Source: Cyanidioschyzon merolae (taxonomy: Eukaryota). Taken from it: DNA of 64,000 bases. The stretch lies in NCBI GenBank assembly GCA_000091205.1, contig AP006490.2. One strand, 5' to 3'. Each line of letters starts with the position of its first letter. Within the stretch, counting starts at the first letter, position 1. The position numbers and the translations under genes were made by a program. The notes under the pieces were generated by a model. That model saw only the letters and a program-made list of their open reading frames with translations, did no database searches and had not been told where the DNA came from. Below, in pieces: positions 1 through 48,498 of the stretch.

Positions 1-1856
1 CTCGCACTTTGTGACATCTAGGCCTGTATCGGGCAGCGCGACTTATTTTGCAAACGTTCAAGGTAGATGAAGTGAAAGACTTGGTCGTGGGGATGCATTC
101 CGGGCCGAAAGCGCGAAACTGCCGGTGCGGTATCCCAAAGTCGTGAGGAAGGAGCCAAACCCCTGAACGTAAACCAGAGGGAGCTATCCAGCATTTGCAT
201 TGCCCGGTATGATCGCGAGTTGGGCATCACGGATGCGCGAAGGCATAGCAAGGAGTGGAATGATGGCATCAGGGCCTCGTTCGTATGCTCTGAGCACCGT
301 ATCGAGCTAAGAGGTACGCTGTGTACGATTCATTCAGTGGGCACAAGGCATGTCCATGGCTCATGTGGACGAACTTTGGTTGAAGCATATAGGACGGCGC
401 TGGGGTCACCAACGCTTGCGGTTGGACAGAGACAGGAGGCACGCACTCGCGCCCTTCTTCGATGAGCTGGAAACCGACTTGACCGATACCTGGCGTTGTT
501 TCGTGAGAGCGCATAGCGCTGGACGGGCTGTAGCGTGCAAACGCTGCACTCCTGGTTTCATCGACGAGGTCCTCTAACGAGTGCAGGAATCAATTCTATT
601 CGATGCCCATCGATGTGTTCACGACGACGCGTATGCGTTAAGAGTCCGAATGCAGGCTGAAACCGCAATACTAGAATAGCACGAAACACAGCCGGATGCG
701 TTGGATGGTGCGTGATACACGCAGCAAATTTCTGATGGAGAGGCAGTCGCAGATGAGCCGCTTGCCACGGTGTGATGCCGCAAACCACCACGCGTACAAG
801 CACTATCTGCATCCAGACTCGAGCGCCGCGATCAACATCCGGAATTGTCTCGAGCCTCGGCAGCGTCCAATGACTTGGCGAATTTTCGAGCGAATCGTTT
901 CGTGCTCACCGTTGGCACTATGCTGAGACGCCGCGGATCGTAGAAGAAAAGATTAGTCATCAAGAAAGGCAGGCTTCGATTCTCGCCCACAGCTCGACAA
1001 TGCCATGGTACCGTCCAGCGATCCAGCAATGCTCGAGCGCCGCCCATATGTACACGAACCTCAAGGGCAAGTGGTGAAAAACAGCAGTGTCCTGGCATTC
1101 GAAATTAGTCAGTATACGCGGATCCTCTGGGATGATATTACCTGTGTTGACGATAATGCTGGATGAAAAACGAGTGCACCAGCGAGAGAGAACGATCATC
1201 ATGCATACGCACGGAAACGCAGTACCGCAAGGCACAGCGCTTTTCTACCGACGTGTCGTCGATCACGGGTAGACCTTGACCTAGCCAACGGGTGCTAGCG
1301 TTGCCTCCAGTCCAACCAATTCGTCACCGAAAATACCGGGACTTGGCCTCGTGCAAGCACTGAGAGTCACTTGGGGCTAGCATTGACCGCGAGCATGTTC
1401 ACGACCATACCGCATTCCTAGAGTGAACGATGCCTGCTTGAATGATCTGTTCTCTAAAATCTACCTCCCTTGTACTCCATCAACGAAACTGGTCCCTACT
1501 TCTGTATGTGTTCTTCTCTGTCAATCTTCGACTCGTATCCAGCTGCTGACATGAATGCAGTTGCGAACACAGGCAGAGTGCATGCGACCCAAGCCCGCTC
1601 GCTGCCGCATGCTCGTTCGCTTCGTCATCATCATCATCAGCGACATCGACATCAGCCTCTTGACACGACCTACAGGCTTCTACACTGAACCTGGTGCCGT
1701 TGTTGCACGGTGCTGGCCTAGTGGTGTTCCCGAGTATATCGGGGCGTGCTTGCATTAGTACCTTTTTAACTGCGCACAAGCCCGTGAGAGGCCCGGCGCT
1801 GTCGCCATAGACGCACGACACCTGAAACGTCCAGTCGAGAGCACGTCGTGTGACAA

Positions 1857-4619
1857 GTGCTCAGAGCGCTGCTCGCGAGGTTGATGTTTGGTCTTGACCT
1901 GGCCAATGTCTCCTCTTTGTGTTGCTCAGCTTCGATCAGTGCATGGATGATGCTTTTCGTTCGAGTCATGCGTATGGTGTATTGTATGCTAGCCGCGCAA
2001 CGACACGCTCCCTCAACAGGAGCCCAAGCAGGAAACATATGCAAGAAGTCAACGCGTTCCGTTCGACTGCTGCTACTACTGCTGCTCTGTTCTAGTCTGA
2101 TGGACCCACAAAGCGCTCCCGGCCACGGAACAGTGGTCAACAACGGTCTGTACCTGTTTAGAGAGGCTTATACACCGACTCCGCACGACTCACCCGAGTT
2201 TCCGAACGCAACGCTGCCGTCGGCATGGAAGCGCTTCAACTACCATACCTATAGCAGCATGGTGATCACGCTAGCACGCTTAGCGTATTCATATCCTGCT
2301 TTTGCTCGTCTGTACACGACACAGGCAGCATTTGGACTACCAGCAGCTGGCGAATCATGTTCTATCGACACGCACCAACCCATGAGCCAAGAGGCGTTAA
2401 CGGGACTCGACCAGAAGCAGCGCCTCGCTGTAAAGCGCCTCATCGAAGAGCTTCGCACCCAGGATGGTCTGTCACGCAACGCTTGCCGTGTATGGGTACT
2501 CGAGATCGCCGACAGGTCTTCGGTTGCCCAGGGATCCGTCGGAAGCGTGCTGGATCCTCCAGCGATTCTCATTTCTGGTGCATTGCACGGTGATGAGCGC
2601 ATTGGCCCGACTGCGGTTACAGAGCTTGCACGCGTGCTCCTCGAAGCAAGCCGGCTGCCTGCGGGTTCAGTGGACACTCATCGTTGGCGCGCCTCAGCTG
2701 CCGAAGAAGCCGACGGATCCATTTTCGGTAGCACTGCGGGTTCGCTGTCCTCGTGGCTGCGTTTCCTGGTCGGACACCGACGTATCACCATTGTGCCTGC
2801 AGCCAATGCGATAGGGTTCGCGCTCGGCGAACGCACCGAACTGGGTGTCGATCCAAATCGGGACTTTCCCTGGAATCAGCCATACGGGGCGTCATGTTTG
2901 GAAAGCGTTGCCGCTCGCTCCATTCATGAACTCGTTTTAGCAAATACTTACCAAATGATGCTGACGTTTCACGGTGGAACAACGGTAATTGGTTACGAAT
3001 GGGGCGACCTGACGCATTGCCCTGAGCAGCAGTATTGCCGTCGCAACTCGCCAGCCCCAGATATAATTGCCATGCAAACGATTGCTTACGCTTTGCGATT
3101 GCATGCGGGGAACGGGACGCGTTATGGGGCGCGACCCTTTGACATCGGGACAATGGGCGATACCGTTTATCCGGTGGCAGGTGGAATGGAGGACTGGGCG
3201 TACGGCGCATCGGCCCCGGTGCAGACGTCACTTGTCTCGATTTGTAACGCGAGCCGATACGGCGGCTATGCACCCGTTAAAGTGCAGGCAGTGCGGCAGC
3301 TCCCCGTAGCGCGCATGATTGCCCTGCTCATCGAAACCGCTGATGATAAGCAACCTTCTGTGGAGACATTGGGCGTTCGACCGTTGGGCGCTGCCGGCAA
3401 TGCCCCCTGGCAGGCCGACGTTCGACTCATCACCGAAACGCCAACAGTGTCCGCGGATGGCTCGGAGTCAGATTCTGAACTGGTTGTCGAAGGGCACGTG
3501 TGGCGGAACTTGCGCCTCGCACTCCAGGCTATCGATATCCTGCAACCGTATGCGGCATTCACACGGTATCCCGGCGATGGACGAACGCAAGCAGCGGACA
3601 ACGCGACGGCCGCATCAATAGTCTGTTGGCGGGTCGGTGGAGCATACCACGTTGCTGAGACGCAGTTGCAAGGATGGTACGACTCTGGGGCTGCAGCGAG
3701 GATACGGCAGAATCAGGACAGTGCCCCGGACTTTGTGAGCGAGGCCTTCATAGACGCGTCTCCCGATCCGGTACCTTTCTTTCCAGCTGTTCGACTAGGA
3801 CAGGGTACCCGCTGGTCTCCTGATAATCATGGAGGTCGCGAGTTTTGTGTGAACCTCCAGCAGCAGCAGCAGCAGCAGCAGCAACCGTTCACCGGAGCAA
3901 AGCGTCCGCCACGGGGCTCCAGCATCCTGCTGCGCGTGCGCTTCCAGGCCGACGTCGACTGGGGTCGCTTACCGCCGAGTACGCTCGGAGCGCAGCCACC
4001 AAACACCAGGCCCTGGAGTTTTCTCGCCCAAAGTCGTGTGGAGTACAACTCTAACTCCACTAAATTTGCTGACGAGCGTCCGTCCACGTCCGAAGAAGAC
4101 GGTGTCGCTCGGGGCACAAACTGGTTCTCACGTGGACTCCACTGCCGAGCGTCTGAGGTGAGCACAGGGCATCAGCCGCAAGTCTGGACCTGCGTGCACA
4201 GTGAAGTCGCTAGAGGAACCGAATTAGGCGAGTCAGGGGCCATGTCCGGCTGGAGCAAGCTTTTGTTGGCGATCTCCGTCTTCCTCCTGGCGCCAGGGTC
4301 GTTTCCGCTGCTCCTGTTTCTCAGCTTTCTACTTTGGCGTCTGGTGCGAGGCCAGTCTGTGCATCCCGCTGAGGTATGGTTTGAGGCACGTCAACGAATG
4401 GAGATGTGGATGCAGGGACTAAGGGCGTTGGGACGGGCGCGAGGCCCAAGTGGAACTCGAGTTTCTGGGTCGTTTGCGCGTTCCACTGACCTCGACGACA
4501 CGAAACGCCGTATGCTTTCGCCGACAGCCAGCAGCGCCGCCGCAGCCGAGCGAGACGCTAGCAGCAGTGCACATGACCTGGACTTGGAGGCGAGCACGCG
4601 GCGCCCAGACAGGCCCTGA
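1857..4619 (+). CDS. Secreted M14 zinc carboxypeptidase. The catalytic domain is in the first ~480 aa. It is fused in the same ORF to a ~440-aa low-complexity C-terminal extension containing a Q9 tract and a hydrophobic TM-like segment. The true start is probably the ATG near 1986, which precedes a signal-peptide-like 'RSVRLLLLLLLCSSL'.
   Basis: M14 motifs read directly in the translation: zinc-ligand 'LHGDERIG' (HxxE), 'GVDPNRDFPW' (cf. GVDLNRNF), 'FHGGTTVIGYEWGD' (second His region), 'GGMEDWAY', 'LLIETADDK' (catalytic Glu region). The N-terminal 'YHTYSSMVITLARLAYSYPAFARLYT' is typical of the family. The C-terminal half has no recognisable domain. Confidence 0.7.
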   Translation: MLRALLARLMFGLDLANVSSLCCSASISAWMMLFVRVMRMVYCMLAAQRHAPSTGAQAGNICKKSTRSVRLLLLLLLCSSLMDPQSAPGHGTVVNNGLYLFREAYTPTPHDSPEFPNATLPSAWKRFNYHTYSSMVITLARLAYSYPAFARLYTTQAAFGLPAAGESCSIDTHQPMSQEALTGLDQKQRLAVKRLIEELRTQDGLSRNACRVWVLEIADRSSVAQGSVGSVLDPPAILISGALHGDERIGPTAVTELARVLLEASRLPAGSVDTHRWRASAAEEADGSIFGSTAGSLSSWLRFLVGHRRITIVPAANAIGFALGERTELGVDPNRDFPWNQPYGASCLESVAARSIHELVLANTYQMMLTFHGGTTVIGYEWGDLTHCPEQQYCRRNSPAPDIIAMQTIAYALRLHAGNGTRYGARPFDIGTMGDTVYPVAGGMEDWAYGASAPVQTSLVSICNASRYGGYAPVKVQAVRQLPVARMIALLIETADDKQPSVETLGVRPLGAAGNAPWQADVRLITETPTVSADGSESDSELVVEGHVWRNLRLALQAIDILQPYAAFTRYPGDGRTQAADNATAASIVCWRVGGAYHVAETQLQGWYDSGAAARIRQNQDSAPDFVSEAFIDASPDPVPFFPAVRLGQGTRWSPDNHGGREFCVNLQQQQQQQQQPFTGAKRPPRGSSILLRVRFQADVDWGRLPPSTLGAQPPNTRPWSFLAQSRVEYNSNSTKFADERPSTSEEDGVARGTNWFSRGLHCRASEVSTGHQPQVWTCVHSEVARGTELGESGAMSGWSKLLLAISVFLLAPGSFPLLLFLSFLLWRLVRGQSVHPAEVWFEARQRMEMWMQGLRALGRARGPSGTRVSGSFARSTDLDDTKRRMLSPTASSAAAAERDASSSAHDLDLEASTRRPDRP
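3858..3884 (+). repeat. (CAG)8-CAA microsatellite encoding a Q9 tract inside the carboxypeptidase ORF.
   Basis: Direct reading 'cagcagcagcagcagcagcagcagcaa'. The antisense frame gives poly-Cys, which is an artefact. Confidence 0.9.
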
Positions 4620-7109
4620 AATGCGTCCAATTGTATGCACTGCATTGCTTGTATTTATCGTCACATAACGTGACGAGTTACGCAGGAGTTTTCGCCACGT
4701 GTACCCGGGTATGTTTGGGCCGGATACCCGGAGACCGCACTTTGCTTGTATTTCACGGTATATATTGAAAGATGGAGGGCGATGCGCGGAGCGCTCCCGG
4801 AGTCGTAACTACATTCATTTCGCGGACTTGTTGTTGGTGTCATGAAACCGCTTCAGGTCAGTTGCCGCATGCCTGCGGACGACGTGTCGCTCGGGTGGTT
4901 GCCCGAGTAGCGCCGCGATACGCCCGCTCCTGGTGCGCATCGCCAGTGGAGGCGTTTCCATTTGGGTTGTACTCCTGCTCGAGTGATCCACGGCGATGAC
5001 AGGTATCCAAAGTGCTCACGTAAGAGTGACTTGCATGGATGAATGATGATGGTGAAGTGCTGCGATGCGTCGGAAGCACCGTTGTCCGTCTGAATCGTGT
5101 GCGCTGCTTTCGTTCTGGCTGGAGCGGAATGATCTATTTCGGGAAGGAATACGCGCAGTATCGCTGGGGCCGCTGCAGACCTCGCTTCGATAGATGCTGG
5201 CGCGTTACTTGCGTTTTCTTGTACGACATACCCGAGAATACTTTCGATGCTGCAACGTCGAAGACGTAGAAATGCTGCAGCAACTATTCGTGTTGCTGTT
5301 GCTGTGTAGGCGTCTTTGTGTACAGCCAGGCTTGTGCGCCCGTGTTCGTCATCGTCGATCGAGGCATGTACACAACCATTCTTTTGGACCAAACGCTCCA
5401 CTTATGTGACGGGTACCGATCCGAGCAAGGATTCCTGGAAGCATGTGCGTGCATACGCGGGCTCTCTTCCGGTCTCGTGACCAGACGGTCGTCCAGTGGG
5501 ATGCTGGTACCGCAATCAGCGCCGCAGTGCTTGCGAGCGGCTCGCATGCATCCAAACTCGTTCGCCGTTCACGATATCATGCCATGGTGCGATGGAAATT
5601 AATTCTTCATCGTCTTCAATACGGCTAGGAATTAAGCTGGGGTACGGATACGCTGCTGGCGAGCGCGTTTCAGCGGACGTTTGGCTCACACGCTGACGCT
5701 GCTCATTCAACGGTACATGTGCCCGACGCGCCTGCACTCGCGACAGCGGCGCGCTGTAGCGAGCGGCTTGCCACGAGATGCCAAGTCGCGCACAGCAGTA
5801 GAACGCTGACGTGCTGCAACGACTCGTAGACGCTGGGCCCGCGCATTCGCCCTGCACCGTCGTACCAGAGCAGGCGCAGGGACGCGTCCGGATGCAGGGT
5901 GTTGAACGTACGAGCGTTTTCCAAAAATATACAGAAATGTTCCGTTTGTGCTAGATGAACAAGGAATACCAGGCGTGTACTGTCGCCCGATCGGTGCTTG
6001 CGAGCCACATCCAGTAGGGAAAAAATGTACATAAATGTGCTGTATTGTCTAGACACCCTGATGACACTTGGCATGCCCGCTGCCTCGTTGCCATTTGGAC
6101 CGGGAAGCGCGGAACGGCGGGCGCGCAGACACCATGCCTTGCCCGCCTGGCATCAGCGCTAGCAGCGCAGGTGCGGGTGACGTCTTTGAACTCGAGTATG
6201 GTCTGCCGCCGCTTTCTGCAATCGAATGCATTTTCGCATTGTATACCATTAGATCGAAATGAGCATGCCGTGTACCGAACAGAACGTAGACATGTTGCCT
6301 GCAGAAAATGTTCTGCAATGAACAGTGCAACGAGGACTGCATTCTTCACTCTATTCAGTCGTACTGCAGTGCTCTGATGGTTGAGGAATATTGAAAGAAA
6401 GAAGGATATGCGCTCCGTGCCAAAAAAGATAGGCTTAAAGACTGATTGCGTTCAATCGTGGAACAACGATGCGTTCATCAACTTATGGAACGCAAAATCG
6501 ACGATAGCAACGGCAACGAGTGTCTCCGGTTCTGATCAGATTGTCCATGTTCTATTAAAAACACTGGAACACAGTCCCAAAAATACTTCTGTTTCACGCA
6601 CGGGCATCTTCCACCAAAGTCGTGACGATAGCGTTCCTGGAACGTTACGATCGGTATGAAGCGCAAGGACGTAGGGTTATGTTTTCAGTCGGTGAGACTC
6701 GCTTCGGACGAACCGTTCGGAGCGTATACGGGAATTTGCGGAGCACGGAGCCCGTTCTATGCACGATCGAGCTCGAAGAGAAGGCTCATACATCAGCACT
6801 CACTCTCTCGAATCAATGAAGGATTTTGCCGGACGTCTGACGACCTTGCTCTACTGGACAACGTCGCATTTCACCATTTCCCTTCGCTTTGGAGCTTTTT
6901 GCCGATGCAGTCGGGGTAGAGCTGCTTTTCATTTATGTGCACGCTTCGTGGTCGAACCGCATCAAATGAGTTGTTTCTGTCATGAAACGTAATGATCGCT
7001 TCACTGGTCGAATCCCTGGACCATTCAGTATAGCGTGAAACACTGGGACACTAGTCGTCATTCCTGCGCAAGTCCGTCTCCGCCGGGAAGGACCTCACCA
7101 AGGTCCATA

Positions 7110-7585
7110 AAGAAGTGCGTTCACTATGAAGAAATAAGAAATCCAAGGGGTGAGCTGGGGTGCAAAGTCCTGCAGGTCGAGATGGCTAAAAAGCAGCGGA
7201 GCCCTGATGATATATAGAAAAGTATGGAGCGCTGAGAGAAGAGGAAACGAAGGGATGGCGCAAGTTCGAGGACTACTCGCACTGGCGGGTTTAAGCGGCG
7301 AGGGCAATAAACACGTGGAGTTCGTGAACCGAGACTTGAAAGCTGCTATCAATATCAGGAGATGCACGGTGCTGGAATGGAGACCTCCGGAGCTAACACG
7401 ATCCATCTCTGTAGGACAAACTTTTAAGGTGGAATTATACGATAATGTGTTGAAATCAGTTGTAGGCGGCCGGTCCAAGACGACGGAAACACGTCTGTAC
7501 GTCAGTCGGAGACGTTTTGTCTAGGGCGCTGGTCGCCTGCTACTGTACACCGTTGGCGTCGTTCGACTTTAGAACGGCGTTTGTC
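7110..7585 (+). mobile_element. Family-I Fanzor/TnpB-like element, 3' fragment (copy A). It covers the zinc-finger-like region, the RuvC-III motif and the conserved 3' terminal block, and is degenerate.
   Basis: The translation 'RGELGCKVLQVEMAKKQRSPDDI ... AQVRGLLALAGLSGEGNKHVEFVNRDLKAAINIRRCTVLEWRPPELTRS...VVGGRSKTTETRLYVSRRRFV*' matches copies B and C. It ends in the shared block 'ctagggcg...ctactgtacaccgttggcgtcgttcgact'. Stops and frameshifts are present. Confidence 0.6.
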
Positions 7586-8178
7586 GTTCGTGTGCAGTCG
7601 TCGATGTACGGGTTAGGCTCTCGAAACTAATCGTATAGAGTAGACCTGAATACAGTACGCGCTTTTGTCAAGTGCCTCGATCGTGCCAGGCGAGATGCAA
7701 GGCTCAAACCTCATGGCAGACATGGACGCTACCTGTGTGCACTGCCTCTGCCAAGATCGCCGGATCCGGAGGACGAAGCAGGCACCATAACTTGGACAAC
7801 GACAGCAGCATGGAATTGAATTGAACTGCCAGCAGTTCCAGAACATAACACGGGATAGAAGCAAAATTCAGGTCAGTTCCTTAATCCGGCGTCCGTGCGG
7901 CATGCATAAGAAGCATAGGGATGAAACGTATATCCGTGTTCAGGAACACCACCGTACGTTGTTTGGTTACGATCAATAAAACTAACGAAATTCCTAATGA
8001 GTAGAGCGATGCACACCTCATCCGCACGAGCGTAGGATACTACGATGGCTACGCTTTTGATTGAAGCGTCGAGAGGAATCGTGTCAGGCGCCTGCATCCC
8101 CTTGTATGTCAGGGCGGTACTGCGATGGGCGGGAGCGTCGGCACCAGCGACATAGCCTATAACAGGAGATCGTTCTGC

Positions 8179-10975
8179 GTGAGTTTCCGATCTAGGACAC
8201 TTGCTTTCCGCTGCAGCGCGATGCGAACACGCATGTGCCAATGCGGGGTGTCGGACACGTGTCCTTCATCGATCGGTGAGGCGTCTCGCGCGGTGCACGC
8301 ATCGCGCTCGGTGAGTGCACCTCGTAGATCGGGCAGTCAACTGACACGATGCGCATGCCGCCGTTGAAGAGTAACGCGATTGGGATCAGTAGCGTGTAGC
8401 TGTAACGTAAAAGCTGGATTTCAGGTGAGGTCTTAGCCAAGTACAGTCTTTCAGTTCATTTTTGTTTCAGCCCTCAAACAAGTGTATTCAAGTGTTTTTT
8501 TCGCAGTGTATAACAGAAGCGTTCAAAGAGCGTTCTTGTTCAAAAAAACTAAAAAAGGAAAGATATGAAAAAGCAAGTCGACGATCCTGGAGGCACAGGG
8601 TCGCCGGCTGCCAGAAAAAAAAACAAAAATCAGTACCGAGTCCAGAGGAAAAGGAGGAGAAGAGGAAGGACCGAAATGGGGAGGTCCTACGTCGAAGGCG
8701 ACAAGAAAGACGACTTTACGACCAGATGGTGGATAAAAGCTGTCTTCTTAAACATATCTATGATCCCTACAGGGAAAAGTTGCGAGACGCTATCAAAGAA
8801 CGTGTTGCGTCATACTCGAAGAGTATTGTCAAGGCGTCATCAGGACTAGTGCATTTGGCGAGGGAGATGTATCGCGACGTGGCGCACATGGAAACGGTCG
8901 AGATTCCGGACGAGTTTTTCGACAAGACCTGTATTCGTCACCTGATGGTTGGTAGCGAGGAAGCGCGGAGGGAAAATATGCTATTGCATGCCCTGCACGA
9001 AAACATCGCGGAATTCTGCTTCGAGGGTACCCCATTCAGGGGTGACCCGGATATTTACACATACGGGGCGATGAAGTACCTCACGAACCTGAAGAACCTT
9101 TTGACAATGAACCTGGACCGTTTCGTAGTACGCGCCGTATTTTTGTGCTCTACCCGCGCGTCTCTCGCAACGGGATATGGACAATTTCAATGCCATCACG
9201 AAAGATCGTAAGCATGAATATGAGGTCGAATTTGTCGACAAGAAGCCGTCACGCAGGAGAGCAAATGATGATTCCGTCATCCGTTTGGTCATACAAGAGC
9301 ACCGTGCGGTACTGGGGTTGGCGAATCCAACAGAAAGGATATCAGAGTTAAAAAACGATAAGGAAAGATACGATCGCCTCATTCTGCGGTATTTAGTGCT
9401 TCTAGACCTAGAACTTGAATGCAAGGCAGAGATGAAGCTGAGTGGGGAAAAATGAAGAGTGGGAGAGACGGAAGGCTTTCCTTATGGGTAAGCGCTTCAA
9501 CGTCGTACCAGTGTGCAACATCAAGTCGCATTTTGTGACCGTCGACTCCATAGTCCTTTACAGCATCATGATGGAGATCAGTCCGGAGTTGAATGTTAGC
9601 AGGGAGGAGTTCACCGGCGAAAACCGGGAGACGTACTGGAAGAGCATCTTCGATTTCAAACGTCTCAAAGTAAGCAAACAAAAGGTATTCACTGGGATGA
9701 TCGAAACCGATGGAGTAGCCATGTGTGTACACTCTCGGCGGTTGAAGAAAGATCGTCCTGGCCCGCCTTTGGCTTCGCCCGTGACGAAGGATGAAGAAAA
9801 CAAAGAGGAGGATCCTGCGATGTAGGAGGTAGTGGGCAACAACGTTGCCGTTGACGTGACGAAGTATGAAGATGAGAAGGAGGCGGAACCTGCGACGCAG
9901 GAGGTGGAGGATAACGACCTTGTCGTTGCCGCGGCGAAGTATGAAGATAAGAAGGAGGCGGATCCTGTGATGCAGGAGGTGGAGGATGACGACTTTGCCG
10001 TTGGCGCGGACCCCGGAAACACAAATATCATCACCATCGCAGCACCGAAGCGTGCGGAAGATGGTACTGGCGGCAACTTACGCCAGAAAGACATGTGACT
10101 TTTGAGGTTCTCGAGCGCGAAATACTATCGAGAATCGGGAATAATGAATGCGAGGAAACAATTCGAGATATGGTATGCAGGAGTGAAAGCGCATTTGAAG
10201 CGATCAGCCAGGTGACGAGCCGTGGAACGAACTTTGAAGCTTTTCGGATATTCGTGAAAGTTCGTGTTGCCCATTTGGAGGCGCTGTGGAAAGAGTATAT
10301 AAAGCCCAGATGGGCTCGTTTGCGTATGAATCTGTACTGTGGTAAGCAGCGTGCGTTCGCGAACTTTTTCAATCATTTGAGCACCCTGAAAGAGGACAAG
10401 ACTCAAAGGCTCGAAGTAGCGTATGGGGAGGGGCGCTGGCTCACCCAAAAAGGGTACACACCAGTTCCAACGACAAGAACTTACTAGGAGTGCGCAAGGC
10501 GTTTCGTTACGGTACCGATCGATGAGTTTCGAACATCGTACACACACCACGAGCTGGGGTGTACACTTCAGTGGGTCGAGATGGAAAAGTGTCAGCGGAG
10601 CTCTGAAAATACAAAAAAGTACGGACCGCTGACGGAAGAGCAAATGGAAAGGAGGGCGAAAGTTCGAGGGCTACTCGCATTAGTAAGTACAGTCAGTGGC
10701 AAGAAACGTATCGAGTTTGTGAATCGTGACTTTACCGCAGCTATCAACAGAACGAGATGTGCGGTGATGGAAGGTAGACCGCCAGACTAGACAAGAGAGA
10801 ACTTTGTTGGACAACCTCTCAAAGTGGAATCATATGAGACAAACTTGAAACAAGTAGTAGGTGGCCCGTCGAAACAGACTGGCACGCGTCTGCACTTCAG
10901 TTGGAGCCGTTTTGACTAGGGCGGGTCACTCGCCACTACTGTATACGGTCGGCGTCGTTCGACTTGCGAACGGCA
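8179..10975 (+). mobile_element. Family-I Fanzor/TnpB-like element, full-length but degenerate (copy B). It has a ~385-bp 5' leader, a ~2.35-kb nuclease ORF broken into at least six frames, and a conserved ~60-bp 3' terminal block. The right end lies ~63 bp upstream of the VAMP7-like ATG.
   Basis: Nucleotide and protein collinearity with the inverted copy at 45852-48498 over the whole length, including the non-coding leader (8179-8565 vs revcomp 48115-48498). Boundaries are set where similarity to the other copies stops: 'cgtgagtttcc...' on the left and '...gtcgttcgact' on the right. Confidence 0.7.
8565..10917 (+). pseudogene. Fanzor/TnpB-like RNA-guided endonuclease pseudogene (copy B). It starts 'MKKQVDDPGGTGSPAARKKNKNQYRVQRKRRRRG...' with an NLS-like basic cluster and is interrupted by several frameshifts and stops.
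   Basis: The segments collinear with TnpB are a RuvC-I-like '[24 protein letters not shown]' (cf. 'GIDLGxxxxaTxS'), a RuvC-II region '...RLEVAYGEGRW...', a 'PIDEFRTSYTHHELGC' block (cf. 'VdpaYTSQtCsxCG') and RuvC-III 'KRIEFVNRDFTAAINRTRC' (cf. 'DRDxNAAxNI'). Confidence 0.65.
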
Positions 10976-10990
10976 TTCTCTAGCGGTGCC
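10880..10990 (+). ncRNA. Candidate omega-RNA / right-end scaffold of family I. It spans the 3' end of the nuclease ORF plus the conserved terminal block. This is hypothetical.
   Basis: The ~60 bp immediately after the stop codon is conserved in all three copies: 'ctagggcgNNNNNNNcactactgta(c/t)acggtcgg(c/g)gtcgttcgact'. In TnpB/Fanzor systems the guide RNA is encoded at exactly this position. No expression data are available. Confidence 0.2.
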
Positions 10991-11037: not shown

Positions 11038-11799
11038 ATGGGAGACGCTGGTGCGCCCACTTCGAGTGACAACGTTCCGAACCTGCTGTACTGCGCTATT
11101 TGTCGTTGGGAAGACCGTGTGGTCCTTGCTCGGTACGCTGCGCCCCGGGCAGGAGTCGCACTCGCTGAAACCGGTGCGAGCACCGCCGCCTTCGCGGAGA
11201 CCCTAAGACGCATTCTCCAGTCGAAAAAGATAGCCGAGCACAAGCGCTTAACCATTGAAGAAAAACAACTGGGAATGATCCACTACGACAACGACGGTAC
11301 CTGCATGTACGTGGTATTCTGTCGCGCGTCGTACCCGCAGCGCCTTGCGTTCCAGTTCCTGAACGAGCTGCGGTCGGAGTTCTTGCGCACAGTCGGTAGT
11401 CGCCCTGAAGACGTCGCTTCTGCGACCGAGAATAGCTTGACGAAGCTGTGTCGGCCGTTGATGAGCGAGCTCTGTACCCTGTACGATACGCCTTCGGGAC
11501 TGGATAAGATGTCGCGGATTCGCATGCAGGTCGAGGAGGTCAAGGGCCACATGCAGGACAACATCCACCAAGTTATGAAAAACACCGACGACTTGGAGCA
11601 GCTACAGACGCAGTCGGAGGGTCTGCGCGGGGAGGCAAGTGCTTTCCATCGTTCAGCTGGCACCGTGGAACGCAAGTACTGGTGGAAGAACGCTCGGATG
11701 ATCTGCGTTCTCGTCGTGCTCGTGATACTCATCATTATCGCCATCATCGTTCCGATTATTGTGACACGAAATAACAACAGCAGCAGCTCCTCTGGTTGA
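11038..11799 (+). CDS. Longin-domain R-SNARE (VAMP7/synaptobrevin-like) with a C-terminal transmembrane anchor.
   Basis: N-terminal longin-like region ('LLYCAICRWEDRVVLARY...'). SNARE motif with the central Arg ('RIRMQVEEVKGHMQDNIHQVMKNTDDLEQLQTQSEGLRGEASAFHRSAGTVERKYWWKN'), followed by a hydrophobic TM ('MICVLVVLVILIIIAIIVPIIV'). Confidence 0.8.
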   Translation: MGDAGAPTSSDNVPNLLYCAICRWEDRVVLARYAAPRAGVALAETGASTAAFAETLRRILQSKKIAEHKRLTIEEKQLGMIHYDNDGTCMYVVFCRASYPQRLAFQFLNELRSEFLRTVGSRPEDVASATENSLTKLCRPLMSELCTLYDTPSGLDKMSRIRMQVEEVKGHMQDNIHQVMKNTDDLEQLQTQSEGLRGEASAFHRSAGTVERKYWWKNARMICVLVVLVILIIIAIIVPIIVTRNNNSSSSSG

Positions 11800-12551
11800 G
11801 GGTTTGACGAGTCTGGCGCCGAACGCATTCGCGAAGCAGTGCGCTGGAAGGCGAGTAGCTGCCGCCTTGGTCCAAGGACCTGTTGCCTATTTATCGTCGT
11901 CGACGGCGGACGCGTTGTCGCAACGAGTGAGCGCGTTGGGGCGCTGCATACAGGTTCACAGCCTCTGACACAAGGCCGTGGACGATGCCATAGCGCGTGG
12001 GGCTCTCGGGGAACGCGCGCGTTCGCCCACCTTGAAAAGCGGGGTTCGGACGGTGCACGATGCACGATCCCGTGTTCGGGCATCAAGCGCCAAAGACATG
12101 AATGCACCACATGAGAATGCTCAAGAACGAGTTTATTGTCGAGGGGGAGATTCTATGGGCGCTTGCGCAGCTTTGCAGCGACAGAGCCGCCGAAAACCCG
12201 ACCGCAACGGGACGCCATAAAGGCAATGGTCTTAACGGGGATGCCAGTGCCAAAAAATGCACTCCTGCCCTGTATCGTAGACGACGAAACAGTGGCAGGA
12301 CAGCGCTTCGCGGCGCGCGAAAAATCCATGGATTCTGCGTCCCGTCTGTTCGAAAGAATGGTGTGCTTGCGTTTCACGCGGCACTACAGCGTTCACATCG
12401 ATGCAAGGCGTATTCAAAGCGCAGTAGACAAAGGCGTCAACAACGGCGTTTCGAGTGAATGCAGGGGAATCGATGCATGCATACGCGCCTTCATACCTCT
12501 GAGCGTATCCAGGACAGTCACAAGCGCTCTCATGTGGTCAGAGCCACGTGC

Positions 12552-13547: not shown

Positions 13548-13672
13548 CAGGTATACAGGGATACAGGTATTCAGGGATACAGGTATTCAGGGATACAGGT
13601 ATTCAGGGATACAGGTATTCAGGGATACAGGTATTCAGGGATACAGGTATTCAGGTATACAGGTATACAGGT
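13548..13672. repeat. 16-bp minisatellite (GGATACAGGTATTCAG) x~6.5, with degenerate flanking units. It sits in the ~350-bp divergent intergenic region between the PGM-like and RanBP1-like genes.
   Basis: Direct reading of 'cagggatacaggtattcagggatacaggtattcag...'. Confidence 0.9.
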
Positions 13673-13686
13673 AGGTAGATAGATAC

Positions 13687-14559
13687 GTGTGTTCCTCAGT
13701 TTCAAGGACGGCTGCTGCACAGCGCTTTTGGACCGCGATCAGAGCAGCTGGCTCTAACATGAGCGATCAAACTAGACAATTCTCGGAGAAAGAACAGGAG
13801 AGCGCACAACCTCGCAAGGAGGAAGCAGTGCGTTCATCGTCACCGGAGCAAGCATCGCGAACACCTCCTGCGCCTACCGGGTTTCGTTTCGTCGTACCTA
13901 CCACTGCCACTGCTACTGGTGGTGATGCTGGTCAAGGTAGTGATCGTGAAGCGAATCAGAGCGCTGCACCGGTGAAAGCTCCCCAGGTCGTTTTTGGCGG
14001 TGTCACCGAAAGCGTCGACCAGGACGTTGGTGCCGCTGATGACGACGGTGCAGCGGAGACGCTCGGCGAGGAGGACGCCTCGACTGCCGACTGGAAGCCC
14101 CTGGTGCAGCTTGACTTGGTTCAGATTAAGAGCGGCGAAGAGGACGAGGATGTCGTAGCAAAGTATCGAGCAAAGTTGTACCGCTTTGATAAGAGCATGC
14201 GAGAGTGGAAGGAGCGCGGCACCGGCGAGATCAAGTTTCTCAAGCACCGGGTCAGTGGACGCATCCGCCTGCTGATGCGACGCCAACAGACGCTGAAGAT
14301 TTGCGCCAACCACTACCTTTTACCAGAAATGCGACTGGAAGAGAATATGGGCTCAGATCGATCCTGGGTATGGACGGCCGTCGACTACGCGGACGAGGAA
14401 CGCGACGAGGCGGTTCTAGCGATTCGCTTTAAGGACTCGGAAACGGCAAAGCGGTTCTACGATACCTTCGAGGAGCTTCGCAAAGAGATGCAAAGTTTGC
14501 TTGTATCCGGCAAGTCGGCGACAGAACAATCGCGCCAAGGTGAGCAGACGGCAATCTGA
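13687..14559 (+). CDS. Ran-binding protein 1 (RanBD-containing, RanBP1-like). The ORF start is probably downstream of the listed one.
   Basis: RanBD core 'EEDEDVVAKYRAKLYRFDKSMREWKERGTGEIKFLKHRVSGRIRLLMRRQQTLKICANHYLLPEMRLEENMGSDRSWVWTAVDYADEE...AIRFKDSETAKRFYDTFEE' matches the RanBP1 consensus (WKERG[TV]GD[VL]K[LI]L.H, KICANH, [AS]IRF). Confidence 0.8.
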   Translation: MCSSVSRTAAAQRFWTAIRAAGSNMSDQTRQFSEKEQESAQPRKEEAVRSSSPEQASRTPPAPTGFRFVVPTTATATGGDAGQGSDREANQSAAPVKAPQVVFGGVTESVDQDVGAADDDGAAETLGEEDASTADWKPLVQLDLVQIKSGEEDEDVVAKYRAKLYRFDKSMREWKERGTGEIKFLKHRVSGRIRLLMRRQQTLKICANHYLLPEMRLEENMGSDRSWVWTAVDYADEERDEAVLAIRFKDSETAKRFYDTFEELRKEMQSLLVSGKSATEQSRQGEQTAI

Positions 14560-32847: not shown

Positions 32848-33794
32848 AAAGGAAACGCGCATCGTGCAGTTCCGGATGAGATTGGCAAGCCGCCCCCGCA
32901 CCTGGACGCGTAACGTACGTGGTGCCGCTGCCGCCGCCGCAACAGCAGCAGCGAGCATGCCCTGAATACGCTACGCATCGCTCCGAATCAGAAAAAGAAC
33001 AGAAATGGACCACGAATTACCGGTTAGAGAATCGTATCTTTCCTGCTATACGGTTCGCGTTGACCGGTTATTCGAAATTTTACGTTCTAGGCGGAATGCT
33101 CCGCTAGCAGGACGAGTCTGCCAGGATAATGTTTCGTGCTCCCGCCAGCGACAGGTGATGTAGCGAGACATGAACAACTCGTCCGCAACGCTCTTTATTC
33201 TGCGACTAGGGACAGTTAAGGTGCGTATGGGCGCCGCCCATGTTGCAATTATCTCCTAGCATATCGCTTCGCGCTGCCTGCAGCAGCGCGTCTGCCTGCA
33301 CAGCTTGCAGGCTCCGAAAATGATAAAGAATCCCGACTCCGTATCAGGTGAAGCGTTCCTCGATCCGACGCTCTCATTGGTATGGCAAAGCCGCTCTGTC
33401 TCTGTGCTGCATCCGTGCCAGAGGCATTGGCGCTATTGCTGGTGCTCAAAACAGGTACTCTGCGCAAGACGGAACGCACGGAACGACCATTATCTCTGAG
33501 GGGCATTGTGCATACTGGAACTCGGACGTAGTGCTACGCATGACAGACGCTTTCACCAGCACCGATATCCATCACGTAACCTGGAGCTCCTTACACAAAT
33601 ATATCAACGTTCTGTCGATCGAAATCGATATTCTCTCAGTATCTCCGAGAGGATGGATGGGTAATGGACCTTGAACATACCGCGAAGCATGACAGGCGCT
33701 TTCACGGACACCGATACTCATCACGGAACCTCGAGTTCCAAATCCAAATATATCAACGTTCTTTCATGTAAGAAACAGGATCGCCCCCGAATCG

Positions 33795-35342
33795 ATGATG
33801 ATAATGATGATGATGACGTGCAGCCCGCCGCCGCCGCCGCCGAAGATCTCTGCACCCAGATGCCGTAGGGCAGCTGCCTGGAGGCAAAGATTTCAAATGC
33901 CCAGGAGCCTGTTCTGGAGGCCGTCGTGCCTGTTAACGCCGCTTCCTGGACGGTGTTCCGCGGTGACCCTAGCATCCAAGTTGGGAACACCAGCAATGCA
34001 ATGGGGAAAGTTCATAGATGCGTTCGGGAAACCGATTGAGAGAACTTCGGCGAAAGCAGTTGTTGAGGAGCCGTTTTCCACGGCGAGGCGCAGTGCAACC
34101 GTAGCGGCTGAGGCGAGTCCAGAGGCAGCGGGCCGTGGAGGAGCTTTCGACGAAGCCCTGAAACTTGTTCAGGACCTCGAAGACCAGAACGAGTGTTTCG
34201 ATGGCTCCAAAGTTGAGCAACTGTGGTTTTTGCTGCGTACAGGCATACTGGATAGGTGTAAATACGCACTAGATTCGGAGACGTCCTCGAGCTGTGGCGG
34301 GCTCAACGCCTCGGGACAGTGCCCGTATTGCCAAAGCCTTGACGCTATCCGGCCAGACTGGGAGAGGTTTTCAGCTTTGTTTCGTCAACTTTCGTTTGGA
34401 AGCAGTGCTGGAAGGTGCACAAATGACACTGCGTCACCGATGAGTGTCACGAGTTGCCGTGCACCGTCGAACATGCAACAGGTGCTTCGTGATTCAAACG
34501 ATGTTCACGACGCAAGCACCGAACTACAAGAACGACTCGAAAGTTTGTTGCTATATCGCGACGTTTTTCTCGCCCACGCAACGCAGGTCGTTCGCGCCCG
34601 CCTTGAAGAGCGGGCGGCATTGCAAGAGGCGATCGCTGGCAAACGCGACCTCATCACAAAGTTGCGGAAGCGAATTGCTGAGATCCAGCGATTGGGTTTG
34701 CCTCGGGAACCGCAAGTTCCTCTGACAATGCCAAAAAACGAGGGCACGCCTCGCGATGCGCATGAAGCGACTGCCTCGCCTGTCGCACTAGACGAGTCCA
34801 TCGACGACGCAGGCGTTGCCGGGAACAAGTCCCCAGCAATCGGTACAGGACCTCTGCCGATGATGCATAACGAGCTGACACTTTCAAATGATGATGCCCT
34901 GTCGTCCGGAGCGTTCTCGTTATCTTCAGCTCGTTCGGGTTTTGTGAGCGAACATGTGCGGGTCGCGAAAACGACCCACGGCGACAAGGTGTCTTCAGTG
35001 GCAGAAATCACGGCGTTGAACAATCTCGCGAACGTTGCTCTACAGCGCCTGCTGGGCTCCGAATCCCCGAGCGCCGCCCCGACTGCGGTGGTATGCGGAA
35101 CCTCACCGCATGCATTCAACGCAGTCAGCGCGGATGTGTTACCAGTGCGGAATGTGCTCAGGGCATTCACCCGACACCCCGAAGGCGTACCCATCTCCGA
35201 GCTGCCAGCAATGATGCTCCGAGAGACCGGCGATCCCGTGGTAGCAAATGAGATCGTGGAGTCGCTTTTGAACGCTTGCGTCCTGGAATACGATGAAAAC
35301 TACACCAGCGTACGACTTTTTTCTGAATTTCATCTGGGGTAG
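33795..35342 (+). CDS. Hypothetical protein. The start is probably near 33998 ('MQWGKFIDAFGKPIE...'). It has a central coiled-coil-like segment and no recognised domain.
   Basis: A 515-aa ORF with host-like codon usage. The listed N-terminal poly-M/poly-P start is implausible. Confidence 0.3.
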   Translation: MMIMMMMTCSPPPPPPKISAPRCRRAAAWRQRFQMPRSLFWRPSCLLTPLPGRCSAVTLASKLGTPAMQWGKFIDAFGKPIERTSAKAVVEEPFSTARRSATVAAEASPEAAGRGGAFDEALKLVQDLEDQNECFDGSKVEQLWFLLRTGILDRCKYALDSETSSSCGGLNASGQCPYCQSLDAIRPDWERFSALFRQLSFGSSAGRCTNDTASPMSVTSCRAPSNMQQVLRDSNDVHDASTELQERLESLLLYRDVFLAHATQVVRARLEERAALQEAIAGKRDLITKLRKRIAEIQRLGLPREPQVPLTMPKNEGTPRDAHEATASPVALDESIDDAGVAGNKSPAIGTGPLPMMHNELTLSNDDALSSGAFSLSSARSGFVSEHVRVAKTTHGDKVSSVAEITALNNLANVALQRLLGSESPSAAPTAVVCGTSPHAFNAVSADVLPVRNVLRAFTRHPEGVPISELPAMMLRETGDPVVANEIVESLLNACVLEYDENYTSVRLFSEFHLG

Positions 35343-45851: not shown

Positions 45852-48498
45852 GAACCACAGTCGAACGACCCCGACCGTGTACAGTAGTGACAAACACGCC
45901 CTAGACAAGAAGTCGCGAACTGGCGTACAGACGCCTCCCCGTCTGTTTGGACCGGCCCCCTACTACTGCTTCCATTTTTTTCTCATATAGTTCGACTTTG
46001 AGAGGTTGTCCAACAAAGTCCTCTCTTGTCAGCTCTGGATGTCTCTGCTCCAGCACCGCACATTTCCTTATATCGATAGCGGCATTAAAATCTCGATTTA
46101 CAAACTCCATCCGTTTCTTGCTATCATTCGTTGTACTAACCAGCGCAAGTAGCCCTCGCACTTTCGCTCTCCTTCCCATTCGCTCTTCCTTCAGCGCACC
46201 CTACTTTGCTATGTCCTCAGGGCTCCGCTGGCACTTTTCCATCTCGACCCTCTGAAGTGTACAACCCAGCTCGTGGTGTGTATACGATGTTCGAAATTCA
46301 TCTATCGGCATTGTACCAAAACGCCATGCGCACTCCTTATACGTTCTCGTCGTTGGAGCTGGCGTAGTTCCTTTTTGGGTCTTCCATCGCCCTGCTCCGT
46401 ACGCTACTACGAGCCATTGACTCTCATCCTCCTTCATGGCGCTCAACTTATTGAAAAAGTTGGCGAACGCCCGCTGCTTCCCACCGTACAGATTCATTTG
46501 CAGACGAGCCCACCGGGGCTTGGTATACTTCCCCCACAGTGCATCCCAACGAGCAACGCGAACTTCCATGACTTTCCGAAAAGCTGTAAAGTCCGCCCCG
46601 CGACTCGTCACCTCGCTCAAAGCTTCCAGGTGATCCTTCATTCCTGCATTCCATGTCTCGATTTTTTCCTCGCATTGATTATAAAGGATTCTCGGTAATG
46701 TCTCTATCTTTAGAACTGAAAAAGACACATGTCTTTCTGACGTAAGTTGCCGTCAGTACCATCTTCCGCACGCTTCGGTGCTGTGATGGTTATGATATTT
46801 GTGTTTCCGGGGTCTGCGTCAACGATAAACTCGTAATCCTCTACCTCTTGCGTCGCAGGATCCTCCTCTTTCTCATCTTCATGCTTCGCCGAAGGCAAAG
46901 CCGAGGGCGGAACATGGCGATCCGCCTTCAGCCGCCCATAGTGTACACACAAGGCTACTCCATCGGTTTCGATCATCCTAACGAAGAACATCTGCTTGCT
47001 CACTTTCAGAAGTTTGAAACTGAAGATGTTCTTCCAGTACGTCTCCCGATTTTCGCCGGTGAACTCCTCCCTGCTAACATTGAACTCCGGACTGATCTCC
47101 ACCATGATGCCATAGAGGACTCTGGAGTCGATAGTCACAAAATGCGACTTGATATTGCACATTGGAAACATGTTGCAGCGCTTTCCCATTAGGAAAGCCT
47201 TCCGTCTCTCCCACTCTTCATTTTTTCCTCACTCAGCTTCACCTCTGCCTTGCGTTCGAGCTGTCGGTCCAGAAACACGAAATAGAGCAGGATGACTTGA
47301 TACCATCTTTTTTCATCAATTTTCAACTCTGATACCTTGTCTGTTGGATTCGGTAGCCCCAGTACCGCACGATGCTCTTGTATAACCGCACGGATCGCGG
47401 AAGCTTCATTCGTACTCCCTTTTGACGCCTTCTTGTCGACGAATTCGACCTCATCTTCATGCTTGCGATCGTACGTGATGCCATTGATAATCGCCCATTT
47501 TCCACTGCGAGAGATGCCCGGGTAGAGTGCAAACACGGCGTGTAACATGAAACGTTCGAGGTTCACTGTCAAATGGTTCTTCAGGTTTGTGATGTACTTC
47601 ATCGCCCCATAGCGGTAAATATCCCGGTCACCCCTGTATCGAGTACTCTCGAACCTGTAAAAGGGATGTGTTTCGTGCAAGGCATGCACTAGCATATCTT
47701 CCCTCCGCGTTTCTTCTCTACAAAGCATCGGGTGACGAATACAGGTCTTGTCGAAAAACTCGTCTGGAATCTCGACTGGTTTGACGTCCGTCACTTCGCG
47801 ATACATTTCCCTCGCCAAATGCATCAGTCCTGACGACGCCTTGAAAATACTCTCGGAGTACGAGTCGACACGTTTTTTGATAGCGTCTCGCAACTTTTCC
47901 CTGTAGGGATCCTTGATATGTTTGAGAAGACAGGTTTTCACCACCATCTTGTGGTACGGTCGTCTTTCTTGCAGCCTTCGACGTAGGGCCTCCCAATTTC
48001 GGTCCTTCTTCTTCTCCTCCTTTTCCTCTGGACTCGGCACTGTTTTTTTTTCTGCCAGCCGGTTACCCTGGGCCTCCAGGATCGTCGACTTGGATTTTCA
48101 TATCTTTCCTTTTTTTCGTTTTTTTGAACAAGAACGCTCTTTGAACGCTTCTGTTATATACTGCGAAAAATCAATCGAATATTTTTACTTGAGGTTTGAA
48201 GCACAATCGAACTGAAAGACTGTACGTTGCTATGACCTGAGCAAAAATACAACTTTTACAGTAGATCTACACGCTAGAGATCAGGATCACGTTTCGCTTC
48301 CATGACGGAATACGCGTCTTGTCTCATGCCTGCCCGATCTACGAGGTGCGCTCGCTGAGCGCGTTGCGCGCACCGCGCGAGACGCCTCACCGATCGATGA
48401 AGGACACGTGTCCGACGTCGCTTCGGCACATTCGTGTTCGCATCGCGCTGCAGCGGAAATCAGCTGTCTTAGATTGGAAACTCACGTATCTAGCGCCG
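45852..48498 (-). mobile_element. Family-I Fanzor/TnpB-like element, inverted copy C, the most intact copy. It sits between the HIT gene (~160 bp from the element's 3' end) and the C2H2 zinc-finger gene (~285 bp from its 5' end).
   Basis: Collinear with copy B over its whole length on the minus strand. It ends in the shared 3' block (revcomp of 45852-45913 = 'ctagggcgtgtttgtcactactgtacacggtcggggtcgttcgact') and starts with 'cgtgagtttcc' (revcomp at ~48498). Confidence 0.7.
45901..48200 (-). pseudogene. Fanzor/TnpB-like RNA-guided endonuclease, nearly intact (~740 aa). It is split into four ORFs (47189..48040, 46710..47189, 46201..46728, 45901..46179) by two single-nt homopolymer frameshifts and one in-frame TAG. 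There is an additional A9-run frameshift between the ATG 'MKIQVDDPGG' and the main frame.
   Basis: RuvC-I '[24 protein letters not shown]', RuvC-II region 'QWLVVAYGAGRW', 'MPIDEFRTSYTHHELGCTLQRVEMEKCQRS' (zinc-finger position), and RuvC-III 'KKRMEFVNRDFNAAIDIRKCAVLE'. The frame breaks are at 'gaggaaaaaatgaag' (A6, where A7 would be continuous) and 'atgtgtctttttcag' (T5, where T6 would be continuous). The TAG aligns to TAC (Tyr) in copy B. Confidence 0.65.

Follow-up and report, generated by a model that had tools for sequence, protein, structure and literature searches.

We analysed a stretch of 64,000 nucleotides of Cyanidioschyzon merolae DNA (assembly GCA_000091205.1, contig AP006490.2), called the window below, around an element that lies directly upstream of a longin-SNARE (VAMP7-like) gene. 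This element, copy B, is almost certainly a single old and inactivated insertion of CMe-1, a Fanzor1 element of this alga, and occupies about 7601–10990 on the plus strand. A first-pass annotation made from the letters of the window had described B as a degenerate, Fanzor-like copy at 8179–10975 and had paired it with a related copy, C, elsewhere in the window. The parts of B, compared with the published consensus of the family (CMe-1A), and the gene that follows it are:

7601–8564, plus strand: non-coding leader of the B type, with the 5′ terminus TCGATGTACGGG at 7601–7612; position 8179 falls inside it
8178–8302, plus strand: leader segment common to B and C and missing from the CMe-1A consensus, to which similarity starts at 8303 (consensus 648)
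8565–10919, plus strand: Fanzor1 pseudogene in which all 734 consensus codons are represented (85.7% identity in a codon-aware comparison), ending with the stop TAG at 10917–10919
9785–10009, plus strand: 75-bp tandem repeat in three copies, an acidic stretch just before RuvC-I (Tandem Repeats Finder, self-BLAST)
10003–10026, plus strand: RuvC-I, GADPGNTN, catalytic Asp kept; this Asp is invariant in an alignment of 43 sequences
10518–10538, plus strand: RuvC-II, IDEFRTS, catalytic Glu kept; no CxxC zinc ribbon follows (10539–10721)
10722–10748, plus strand: RuvC-III, NRDFTAAIN, catalytic Asp kept; it aligns with the NRD of the structures 9cf0 and 8gkh
10917–10990, plus strand: conserved non-coding 3′ module, defined by alignment of 3′ ends and by folding
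11038–11799, plus strand: longin-SNARE (VAMP7-like) gene with Pfam Longin and Synaptobrevin domains, directly downstream of B and co-oriented with it

The family to which B belongs has been described twice. Nozaki et al. (2007) reported a repeat with 253 copies of 3.2 kb on average, making up about 5% of the C. merolae genome, whose truncated open reading frame (ORF) is weakly similar to WSV486 of white spot syndrome virus and whose copies are transcribed and ‘distributed randomly’. This is the same repeat as CMe-1A, for which Bao & Jurka (2013, Repbase) gave about 150 copies, each about 80% identical to a consensus of 3169 bp that encodes a protein of 734 amino acids. They placed CMe-1 in the Fanzor1 clade, reported intact copies in strain 10D, found no terminal inverted repeats (TIRs), listed target-site duplications (TSDs) as undetermined, and recognised the 5′ 635 bp as another repeat, TE-N2_CMe. 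We took the CMe-1A consensus from the supplement of that paper and aligned it to the window by BLAST. Positions 8303–10954 of B corresponded to consensus 648–3145 at 84–86% identity (85.2% over 2491 aligned bases), which lies above the approximately 80% over core and 3′ end that is expected of CMe-1A copies, and the published CMe-1 protein could be read as translated frames of B and C. By sequence comparison B is thus a member of the published CMe-1 Fanzor1 family of C. merolae 10D, and the element was already known. The description as a Fanzor-like copy therefore stands in so far as B is degenerate, complete in its ORF and assigned to Fanzor1 by profile and fold, but what it describes is published CMe-1 and not newly seen.

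B is nevertheless not a CMe-1A copy in the strict sense. It resembles CMe-1A in host species, in the 734-codon ORF, in the 3′ end, in the lack of TIRs and in its divergence from the consensus. However, B shows no similarity upstream of consensus 648, and neither B nor C has the 635-bp TE-N2_CMe part. Instead they carry a leader of their own, about 960 nt long in B, which is common to at least 11 other loci, so that they represent CMe-1 members of another leader subtype. B further differs in having three of the 75-bp coding repeats where the consensus has one, and its end seemingly lies 10–15 nt past that of the published consensus. TE-N2_CMe itself also occurs in the window: a copy at 33072–33731 on the minus strand is 79% identical to the 5′ part of CMe-1A, with its 5′ end about 64 bp from the ATG at 33795 of a divergent gene.

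The gene in B is dead although its catalytic codons survive. As the first-pass annotation had proposed, it is interrupted by frameshifts and stops; we counted five frameshifts (near 8615, 9140, 9187, 9448 and 10197) and three in-frame stops, namely TGA at 10096 (codon 460), TAG at 10485 (codon 590) and TAG at 10788 (codon 692). The TGA lies 29 codons past the RuvC-I Asp, in the region where it had been reported. A TAG said to follow RuvC-II had been misplaced, since the TAG at 10485 sits 13 codons before the RuvC-II Glu and the one at 10788 comes after RuvC-III. The family-start ATG (MKKQVDDPGG) is found at 8565, leaving 386 nt at 8179–8564 and agreeing with the leader of about 385 bp counted earlier from 8179. 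B is also longer than the consensus by 150 bases in frame, owing to two further units of the 75-bp repeat. The number of units is one in the consensus (2117–2196) and ranges from one to six at other loci (L007–L086, where L-numbers denote 80 related loci that we fetched from hot-spring metagenomes). In the structure model described below, the acidic stretch that they encode is predicted to be disordered.

Copy C does no better as a reference for the family. It is dead as well, and 5′-truncated, with three frameshifts and four stops at 86.3% identity to the consensus, and neither B nor C retains an intact reading frame. Its BLAST alignment pairs 48351–45877 with CMe-1A consensus 660–3137 at 85%.

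45859–48486, minus strand: copy C, a pseudogene with the leader subtype of B, 5′-truncated relative to the B leader; its 3′ end adjoins a HIT-family gene

The first-pass annotation had claimed that B and C are collinear over about 2.8 kb in opposite orientation, about 35 kb apart, and had proposed a pairwise alignment. Both self-BLAST of the window and a global alignment bore this out. BLAST aligned 8178–9856 with 48486–46817 at 82.9% identity and 9915–10964 with 46909–45859 at 79.9%, and over 2634 columns of the global alignment the two copies were 82.3% identical, at a Kimura two-parameter distance of 0.20. The similarity is far above chance and collinear along the whole length (8178–10977 on the plus strand with 48486–45859 on the minus strand), not confined to short segments. 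In principle, two copies that have in common a leader subtype missing from the published consensus could have arisen by segmental duplication of host DNA, with no transposition. We rejected this explanation, which we regard as having practically no chance of being right: the flanks of B and C are unrelated on both sides, and the same unit recurs beside different genes at over 40 further loci. The 43 distinct clusters of 3′ flanks in related contigs, together with the 150–253 copies given in the literature, show that the family has transposed within this genome, as had been suggested from B and C.

Next, we considered the protein family. A profile search of 1.84 billion representatives returned 2105 relatives, 322 of them at E ≤ 1e-30, including one from the green alga Tetrabaena. 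From these we used an alignment of 43 diverse family members (A5) for a profile and for structure prediction. The RuvC catalytic columns D484, E656, R724 and D725 were invariant or nearly so in this alignment. A Protein Data Bank (PDB) search with a single sequence gave no match; the 43-member profile matched Fanzor1 chains only, at E-values of 2.3e-21 for 9cf0, 4.7e-13 for 8gkh and 1.1e-9 for 9cer, with the DPG, DEFRT and NRD motifs aligned (Parasitella, Spizellomyces and Guillardia). An earlier AlphaFold model built on a shallow alignment of 13 sequences had a predicted local distance difference test score (pLDDT) of 33. The AlphaFold2 model of the family member P0001 built on the 43 sequences reached a pLDDT of 80 and a predicted template modelling (TM) score of 0.77. 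In a Foldseek search with this model, ranks 1–7 were all Fanzor1 (SpuFz, PpFz and GtFz; E 6e-17 to 2e-13, TM-score up to 0.75), and Cas12 variants and Fanzor2 appeared only at E ≥ 7e-3. The predicted Fanzor1 fold, REC/WED plus a split RuvC, covers the whole protein. Judged by profile and modelled fold, the protein is a Fanzor1.

Pfam found nothing significant in the repaired pseudo-protein of B or in family members, Cas12f1-like_TNB remaining below threshold at E 0.23 and 0.0023. The Pfam TNB model misses this clade because the clade has no CxxC..CxxC zinc ribbon of the kind normal in TnpB, Fanzor and Cas12f. Between RuvC-II and RuvC-III a CxxC was absent from 13 of the 14 A5 sequences in which both motifs could be located; a lone conserved Cys (LLWC) occurs there in A5 and is missing in CMe-1 itself. 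The C4 zinc finger within the TnpB/Fanzor motif of Bao & Jurka (2013; D-x-[TS][TS]-x-x-C4 zinc finger-x-RD) is accordingly lacking, though these authors include CMe-1. We treat its absence as a derived loss in a sub-clade and base membership on homology and fold. The window holds the remnant of a second, far more divergent Fanzor1-like ORF at 91–869 on the plus strand, cut by the left edge of the window. It is 27–32% identical to CMe-1 residues 429–689 (tblastn E 2e-11), runs through three frames with RuvC-II/III-like motifs, and is co-oriented with an M14 carboxypeptidase gene about 1 kb downstream.

The left end of B had been set at 8179. This is merely where the likeness to the truncated copy C stops; the leader reaches to about 7601, and 8179 is therefore at least 575 bp too far to the right. 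The segment 8178–8302, which contains a 12-bp palindrome (GGACACGTGTCC at 8253–8264), matches C at 88% identity and is found again at 11 further loci. Eleven of the 80 metagenome loci carry the B leader type, with homology running left to differing points: from 8320 to about 7491–7613 in L066, L077, L081 and L085 (furthest, to 7491–7500, in the first three), and to intermediate endpoints in L011, L036, L083, L034 and L070. In the window as in L066, L077 and L081 the leader starts with TCGATGTACGGG (TCGATG) immediately behind a preceding element with its 3′ module and tail, and copies of the CMe-1A type start with a similar CGATGAC after a run of T. In L066, L077 and L081 the B-type leader is preceded by a 3′-module copy of about 90 bp, attached to further shared sequence that corresponds to no CMe-1 coding region and to no known leader. 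This upstream sequence could represent a small non-autonomous element that ends in the same way at its 3′ side, or could belong to a more extensive stretch that was copied as a whole.

The element that precedes B in the window is element A:

6178–7602, plus strand: element A, an internally deleted CMe-1 derivative with a different leader (about 6178–7149), consensus 2738–3169 (7151–7581) and a GT-rich tail, head-to-tail with B

It was recognised from a third piece of CMe-1 in which 7152–7581 matches 10551–10977 at 72.8% (BLAST) and 7151–7579 matches consensus 2738–3169 at 77%. In L054 and L063 the A-type leader (6178–7149) is joined to consensus about 870–880, and in the window it passes near 900 straight to 2738. 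Having its own leader type and a jump from 900 to 2738, A is an internally deleted element and not a mere fragment. With 78% identity to the consensus against 85% for B, it is also the older of the two.

At the other end, the 3′ module of B consists, in order, of the stop with a first hairpin (TAGGGCG..CGCC), CACTACTGTA(C/T)AC at 10934–10946, a terminal hairpin CGTTCGA-CTTGC-GAACG at 10956–10972 and a tail of subfamily type, TTCTCTAGCGGTGCC, at 10976–10990. The 3′ ends of A, B, C and the consensus have in common the stop with the first hairpin, a near-invariant CACTACTGTACAC and the terminal hairpin. After the latter comes TTTG or TTC and then a tail of 10–15 nt that differs between subfamilies. 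Similarity between copies ends at 10975–10977, which is 61–63 bp before the SNARE ATG at 11038 and agrees with the 63 bp first reported. Since the subfamily tail follows, B probably ends near 10990, 48 bp before this ATG. The terminal segment folded better than shuffled sequences (mean z of −1.7 over 39 distinct 3′ ends), and the terminal hairpin is formed by at least three versions of unrelated sequence: CGTTCGA/TCGAACG, AACGUUUUUC/GAAAGGCGUU, and differing GC-rich stems in L074 and L036 (others include L018 and L022). The AACGUUUUUC/GAAAGGCGUU version needs G–U pairs and so folds on the sense strand only. Thus, the hairpin structure is conserved. By analogy with other Fanzors, the module may be the 3′ part of an omega RNA scaffold, a cis signal for mobilisation, or both; the hairpin could also mark the transcript end. 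An Rfam scan found no family for the module, and no tRNA genes lie near B. When the two flanks of individual copies were compared with each other, no convincing TSDs emerged, and the weak resemblance of GTGCAGTC and GTGCCAGC around B is not evidence for one.

The host locus provides an independent view of the insertion. The SNARE protein matches one from C. merolae 10D at 100% identity, and its orthologues occur in Cyanidiococcus yangmingshanensis (88%) and Cyanidium caldarium (68%). An antisense ORF at 11283–12110 was set aside as a candidate for the downstream gene, as Pfam supports the SNARE gene. The Cyanidiococcus locus is syntenic, with genes for an M14 peptidase, the SNARE, a histidine phosphatase, RanBP1 and a nucleoporin. 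Its spacer between peptidase and SNARE gene measures 931 bp and has no similarity to CMe-1, whereas in the window the same two genes are 6418 bp apart. This identifies B as an insertion that does not belong to a conserved host gene. The idea that it is part of a longer host gene was rejected on the strength of its many paralogues and this empty orthologous locus. The Cyanidiococcus spacer does not align with that of the window, so the empty locus gives no exact junction, and in a search for empty-site alleles all contigs with an identical SNARE protein carried B. In Cyanidiococcus (L087, 9940–10000) the 60 bases before the SNARE ATG are GT-rich (TTGCTTGTTGATTGTCGTC), like the GT-rich tails after CMe-1 3′ ends; the likeness may be due to chance or may point to the sequence that is targeted. 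Farther downstream in the window, CAGGGATACAGGTATT-like units are repeated in a short tandem array at about 13590–13686, directly upstream of an ORF that starts at 13687.

To describe where CMe-1 elements lie relative to genes, we sorted the 3′ flanks by similarity and obtained 43 distinct clusters. Without one cluster that was an internal junction of the A/B type, there were 42 insertions (metagenome loci L007–L086 and B and C of the window). In 35 of the 42, the first substantial downstream ORF was co-oriented with the element and started within 450 bp of its 3′ end, in 27 within 130 bp, with a median of about 66 bp. An ORF on the opposite strand came first in six flanks, and one was unclear. 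Against an expectation of one half, 35 co-oriented among 41 callable insertions corresponds to a p-value of about 5e-6. All ten of the downstream ORFs that were scanned contain Pfam domains, and in two of them the domain begins within residues 1–15, which indicates that the ATG is genuine. Upstream neighbours lie farther away and show no orientation bias (12 minus, nine plus); at the 16 loci where a gene could be called on either side, the 3′ gap was shorter than the 5′ gap in 14 (sign test, p about 0.004). The GT-rich tail was absent upstream of element-free genes in the window. These results show that the placement of B before the SNARE gene is typical of the family and not an accident of this copy. 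The tendency of 3′ ends to lie at gene starts contradicts the published ‘distributed randomly’, and the literature that we searched held no report of such a bias. The tendency is relevant to the way in which Fanzor elements choose their sites or persist at them.

The first-pass annotation had remarked that the right end of B lies within the presumed promoter or 5′ untranslated region (5′UTR) of the SNARE gene, and that the insertion may influence expression of this gene. Ending 48–63 bp before the ATG, B does reach into the interval in which the promoter or 5′UTR has to be located. It is conceivable, yet on balance unlikely, that B has been co-opted, its 3′ end supplying the SNARE promoter, transcription start or 5′UTR, and that CMe-1 3′ ends are generally kept as 5′ regulatory DNA. 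Just 48–61 bp or so separate B from the ATG, and elsewhere the ATG comes about 17 bp past the consensus end in genes with N-terminal domains (KTI12 from residue 1, TPT from residue 15). The co-orientation at 35 of 41 loci and the reported transcription of the elements (Nozaki et al., 2007) point the same way. Nevertheless, 35 independent events of co-option are improbable when a bias of insertion or retention explains the same pattern. Furthermore, the Cyanidiococcus orthologue is expressed from the 931-bp element-free intergenic region, and the 3′ module of B decays like the rest of the copy. A broader version would be that CMe-1 elements are placed, or survive only, directly 5′ of host genes in the sense direction, the conserved hairpin standing tens of bases before the ATG, as a result either of targeting or of promoter or 5′UTR donation; we put this forward tentatively, as a possibility with the odds against it. 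If elements were targeted to transcription-start regions, or through their own guide RNA, or routinely donated promoters or 5′UTRs, B would be part of the SNARE regulatory unit and C. merolae would become a tractable model for site choice by a eukaryotic OMEGA-type element.

We favour the reading of B as a decayed CMe-1 insertion, with the following course of events. An intact element would encode a Fanzor1 of about 734 amino acids, a TnpB-like RuvC nuclease that may be guided by RNA, as are characterised Fanzor1 relatives, and would end in the conserved hairpin module of about 75 nt. As the element has no transposase of its own, it would have been moved in trans by some other enzyme. B inserted directly downstream of the older A, about 50–60 bp before the SNARE ATG and co-oriented with it, which is the usual position of the family. 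It has since decayed to a relic that no longer encodes a working protein and has no enzymatic role; at most it would be passive DNA that holds the SNARE promoter or 5′UTR.

The ends of the copies bear on which enzyme this was. One candidate is a non-LTR (long terminal repeat) retrotransposon that would recognise the 3′ stem-loop in trans and make B and its relatives retrocopies. Their 3′ ends are constant and their 5′ ends vary (equivalents of 7491, 7613, 7672, 7735, 7861, 8063, 8087 and 8178), several unrelated 5′ leaders stand on one core in a manner resembling 5′ transduction, the terminal stem-loop is followed by a GT-rich, simple-repeat-like tail, TIRs are absent, and the genome contains 26 non-LTR elements, three with intact reverse transcriptase (Nozaki et al., 2007). 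However, we identified no partner element with the same 3′ module and saw neither a poly(A) tail nor TSDs. The defined 5′ termini, (T)CGATG after T-runs, fit recognition of DNA ends better, and the tails are specific to subfamilies instead of free-running repeats. We therefore regard retrotransposition as improbable.

Transfer of single-stranded DNA by an HUH-type enzyme (Helitron/Helentron-like or IS200/IS605-like), with Fanzor1 aiding by RNA-guided homing as proposed for TnpB, would also account for the absence of TIRs and of detectable TSDs. The 5′ end TC-GATG after a T-run and the 3′ flank TTTG are compatible with insertion between T residues, and a few bases separate the terminal hairpin from the 3′ end. 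In addition, the 5′ terminus of each subfamily looks by eye like a directly oriented piece of the 3′ module of that subfamily, and head-to-tail tandems occur (A–B in the window and L051). Fanzor1 is carried by Helitrons in Chlamydomonas, a parallel drawn in the literature. On the other hand, a canonical CTRR is missing at the 3′ end, copies truncated at the 5′ end are more frequent than is typical of such transfer, the end similarities were judged by eye on few copies, and no Rep/Hel or Y1 gene turned up, although none was searched for. We consider HUH-type transfer a possible but doubtful explanation. The mobilising mechanism might also be of some kind that has not yet been described.

Several observations weigh against our interpretation of B and its family. 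RNAalifold did not return the terminal hairpin from 19 mixed 3′ ends, which we attribute to subfamilies holding it in different registers, and copies were then folded singly; the single-sequence z-scores (mean −1.7) are themselves modest. An intact ORF was found in none of the 80 metagenome loci, though Bao & Jurka (2013) report intact copies in 10D. Since the zinc ribbon that is usual in TnpB and Fanzor is missing from this clade, its proteins may behave differently in biochemical terms from the Fanzor1 enzymes characterised so far. As for the position bias, genes were called from ORFs, where the choice of the first ATG shortens distances, and the 5′ gaps may have come out too large wherever a leader type went unrecognised. 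The argument from distance is weakened by the small size of the intergenic regions (about 100–750 bp), and scarce neutral space at gene 3′ ends could yield part of the orientation bias.

B by itself adds nothing new: C. merolae is a model alga whose genome is fully sequenced, and the family of 150–253 copies to which B belongs was published in 2007 and again in 2013. What the analysis does provide is a corrected anatomy of the family, with modular leaders, a 5′ terminus (T)CGATG after a T-run, a hairpin kept through complete replacement of its sequence, and no zinc ribbon. Together with the position bias we regard this as a modest lead. C. merolae is genetically tractable, so that questions of promoter use and of an omega RNA are directly testable.

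Among known systems, the closest comparison for the protein is with the solved Fanzor1 structures of SpuFz1 (8GKH, 9CEU–9CEZ), Parasitella parasitica Fz1 (9CF0) and Guillardia theta Fz1 (9CER). The modelled CMe-1 fold matches these over the whole protein with TM-scores of up to 0.75, and their RuvC-I, -II and -III motifs align with the CMe-1 profile, at a sequence identity of 12–15%. Unlike them, CMe-1 has no CxxC..CxxC zinc ribbon and carries an acidic tandem-repeat insert before RuvC-I. In the solved systems the omega RNA is encoded at the right end, where CMe-1 has its conserved non-coding region, and by analogy CMe-1 may have had both an omega RNA and nuclease activity. SpuFz1 elements possess inverted terminal repeats, whereas CMe-1 has none. 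With bacterial TnpB of IS200/IS605 elements such as ISDra2, CMe-1 has in common a RuvC core, a guide RNA expected from the 3′ or right end and subterminal hairpins without TIRs; the similarity to bacterial TnpB is only remote, however, and CMe-1 is eukaryotic, much larger and without a TnpA partner in the element. Helitron termini (TC...CTRR) and a Rep/Hel link would be hypothetical for CMe-1. In other respects the Helitron-borne Fanzor1 elements of Chlamydomonas reinhardtii (CRe-1 to CRe-3) resemble it: they too are algal, lack TIRs and TSDs and have a 3′ hairpin.

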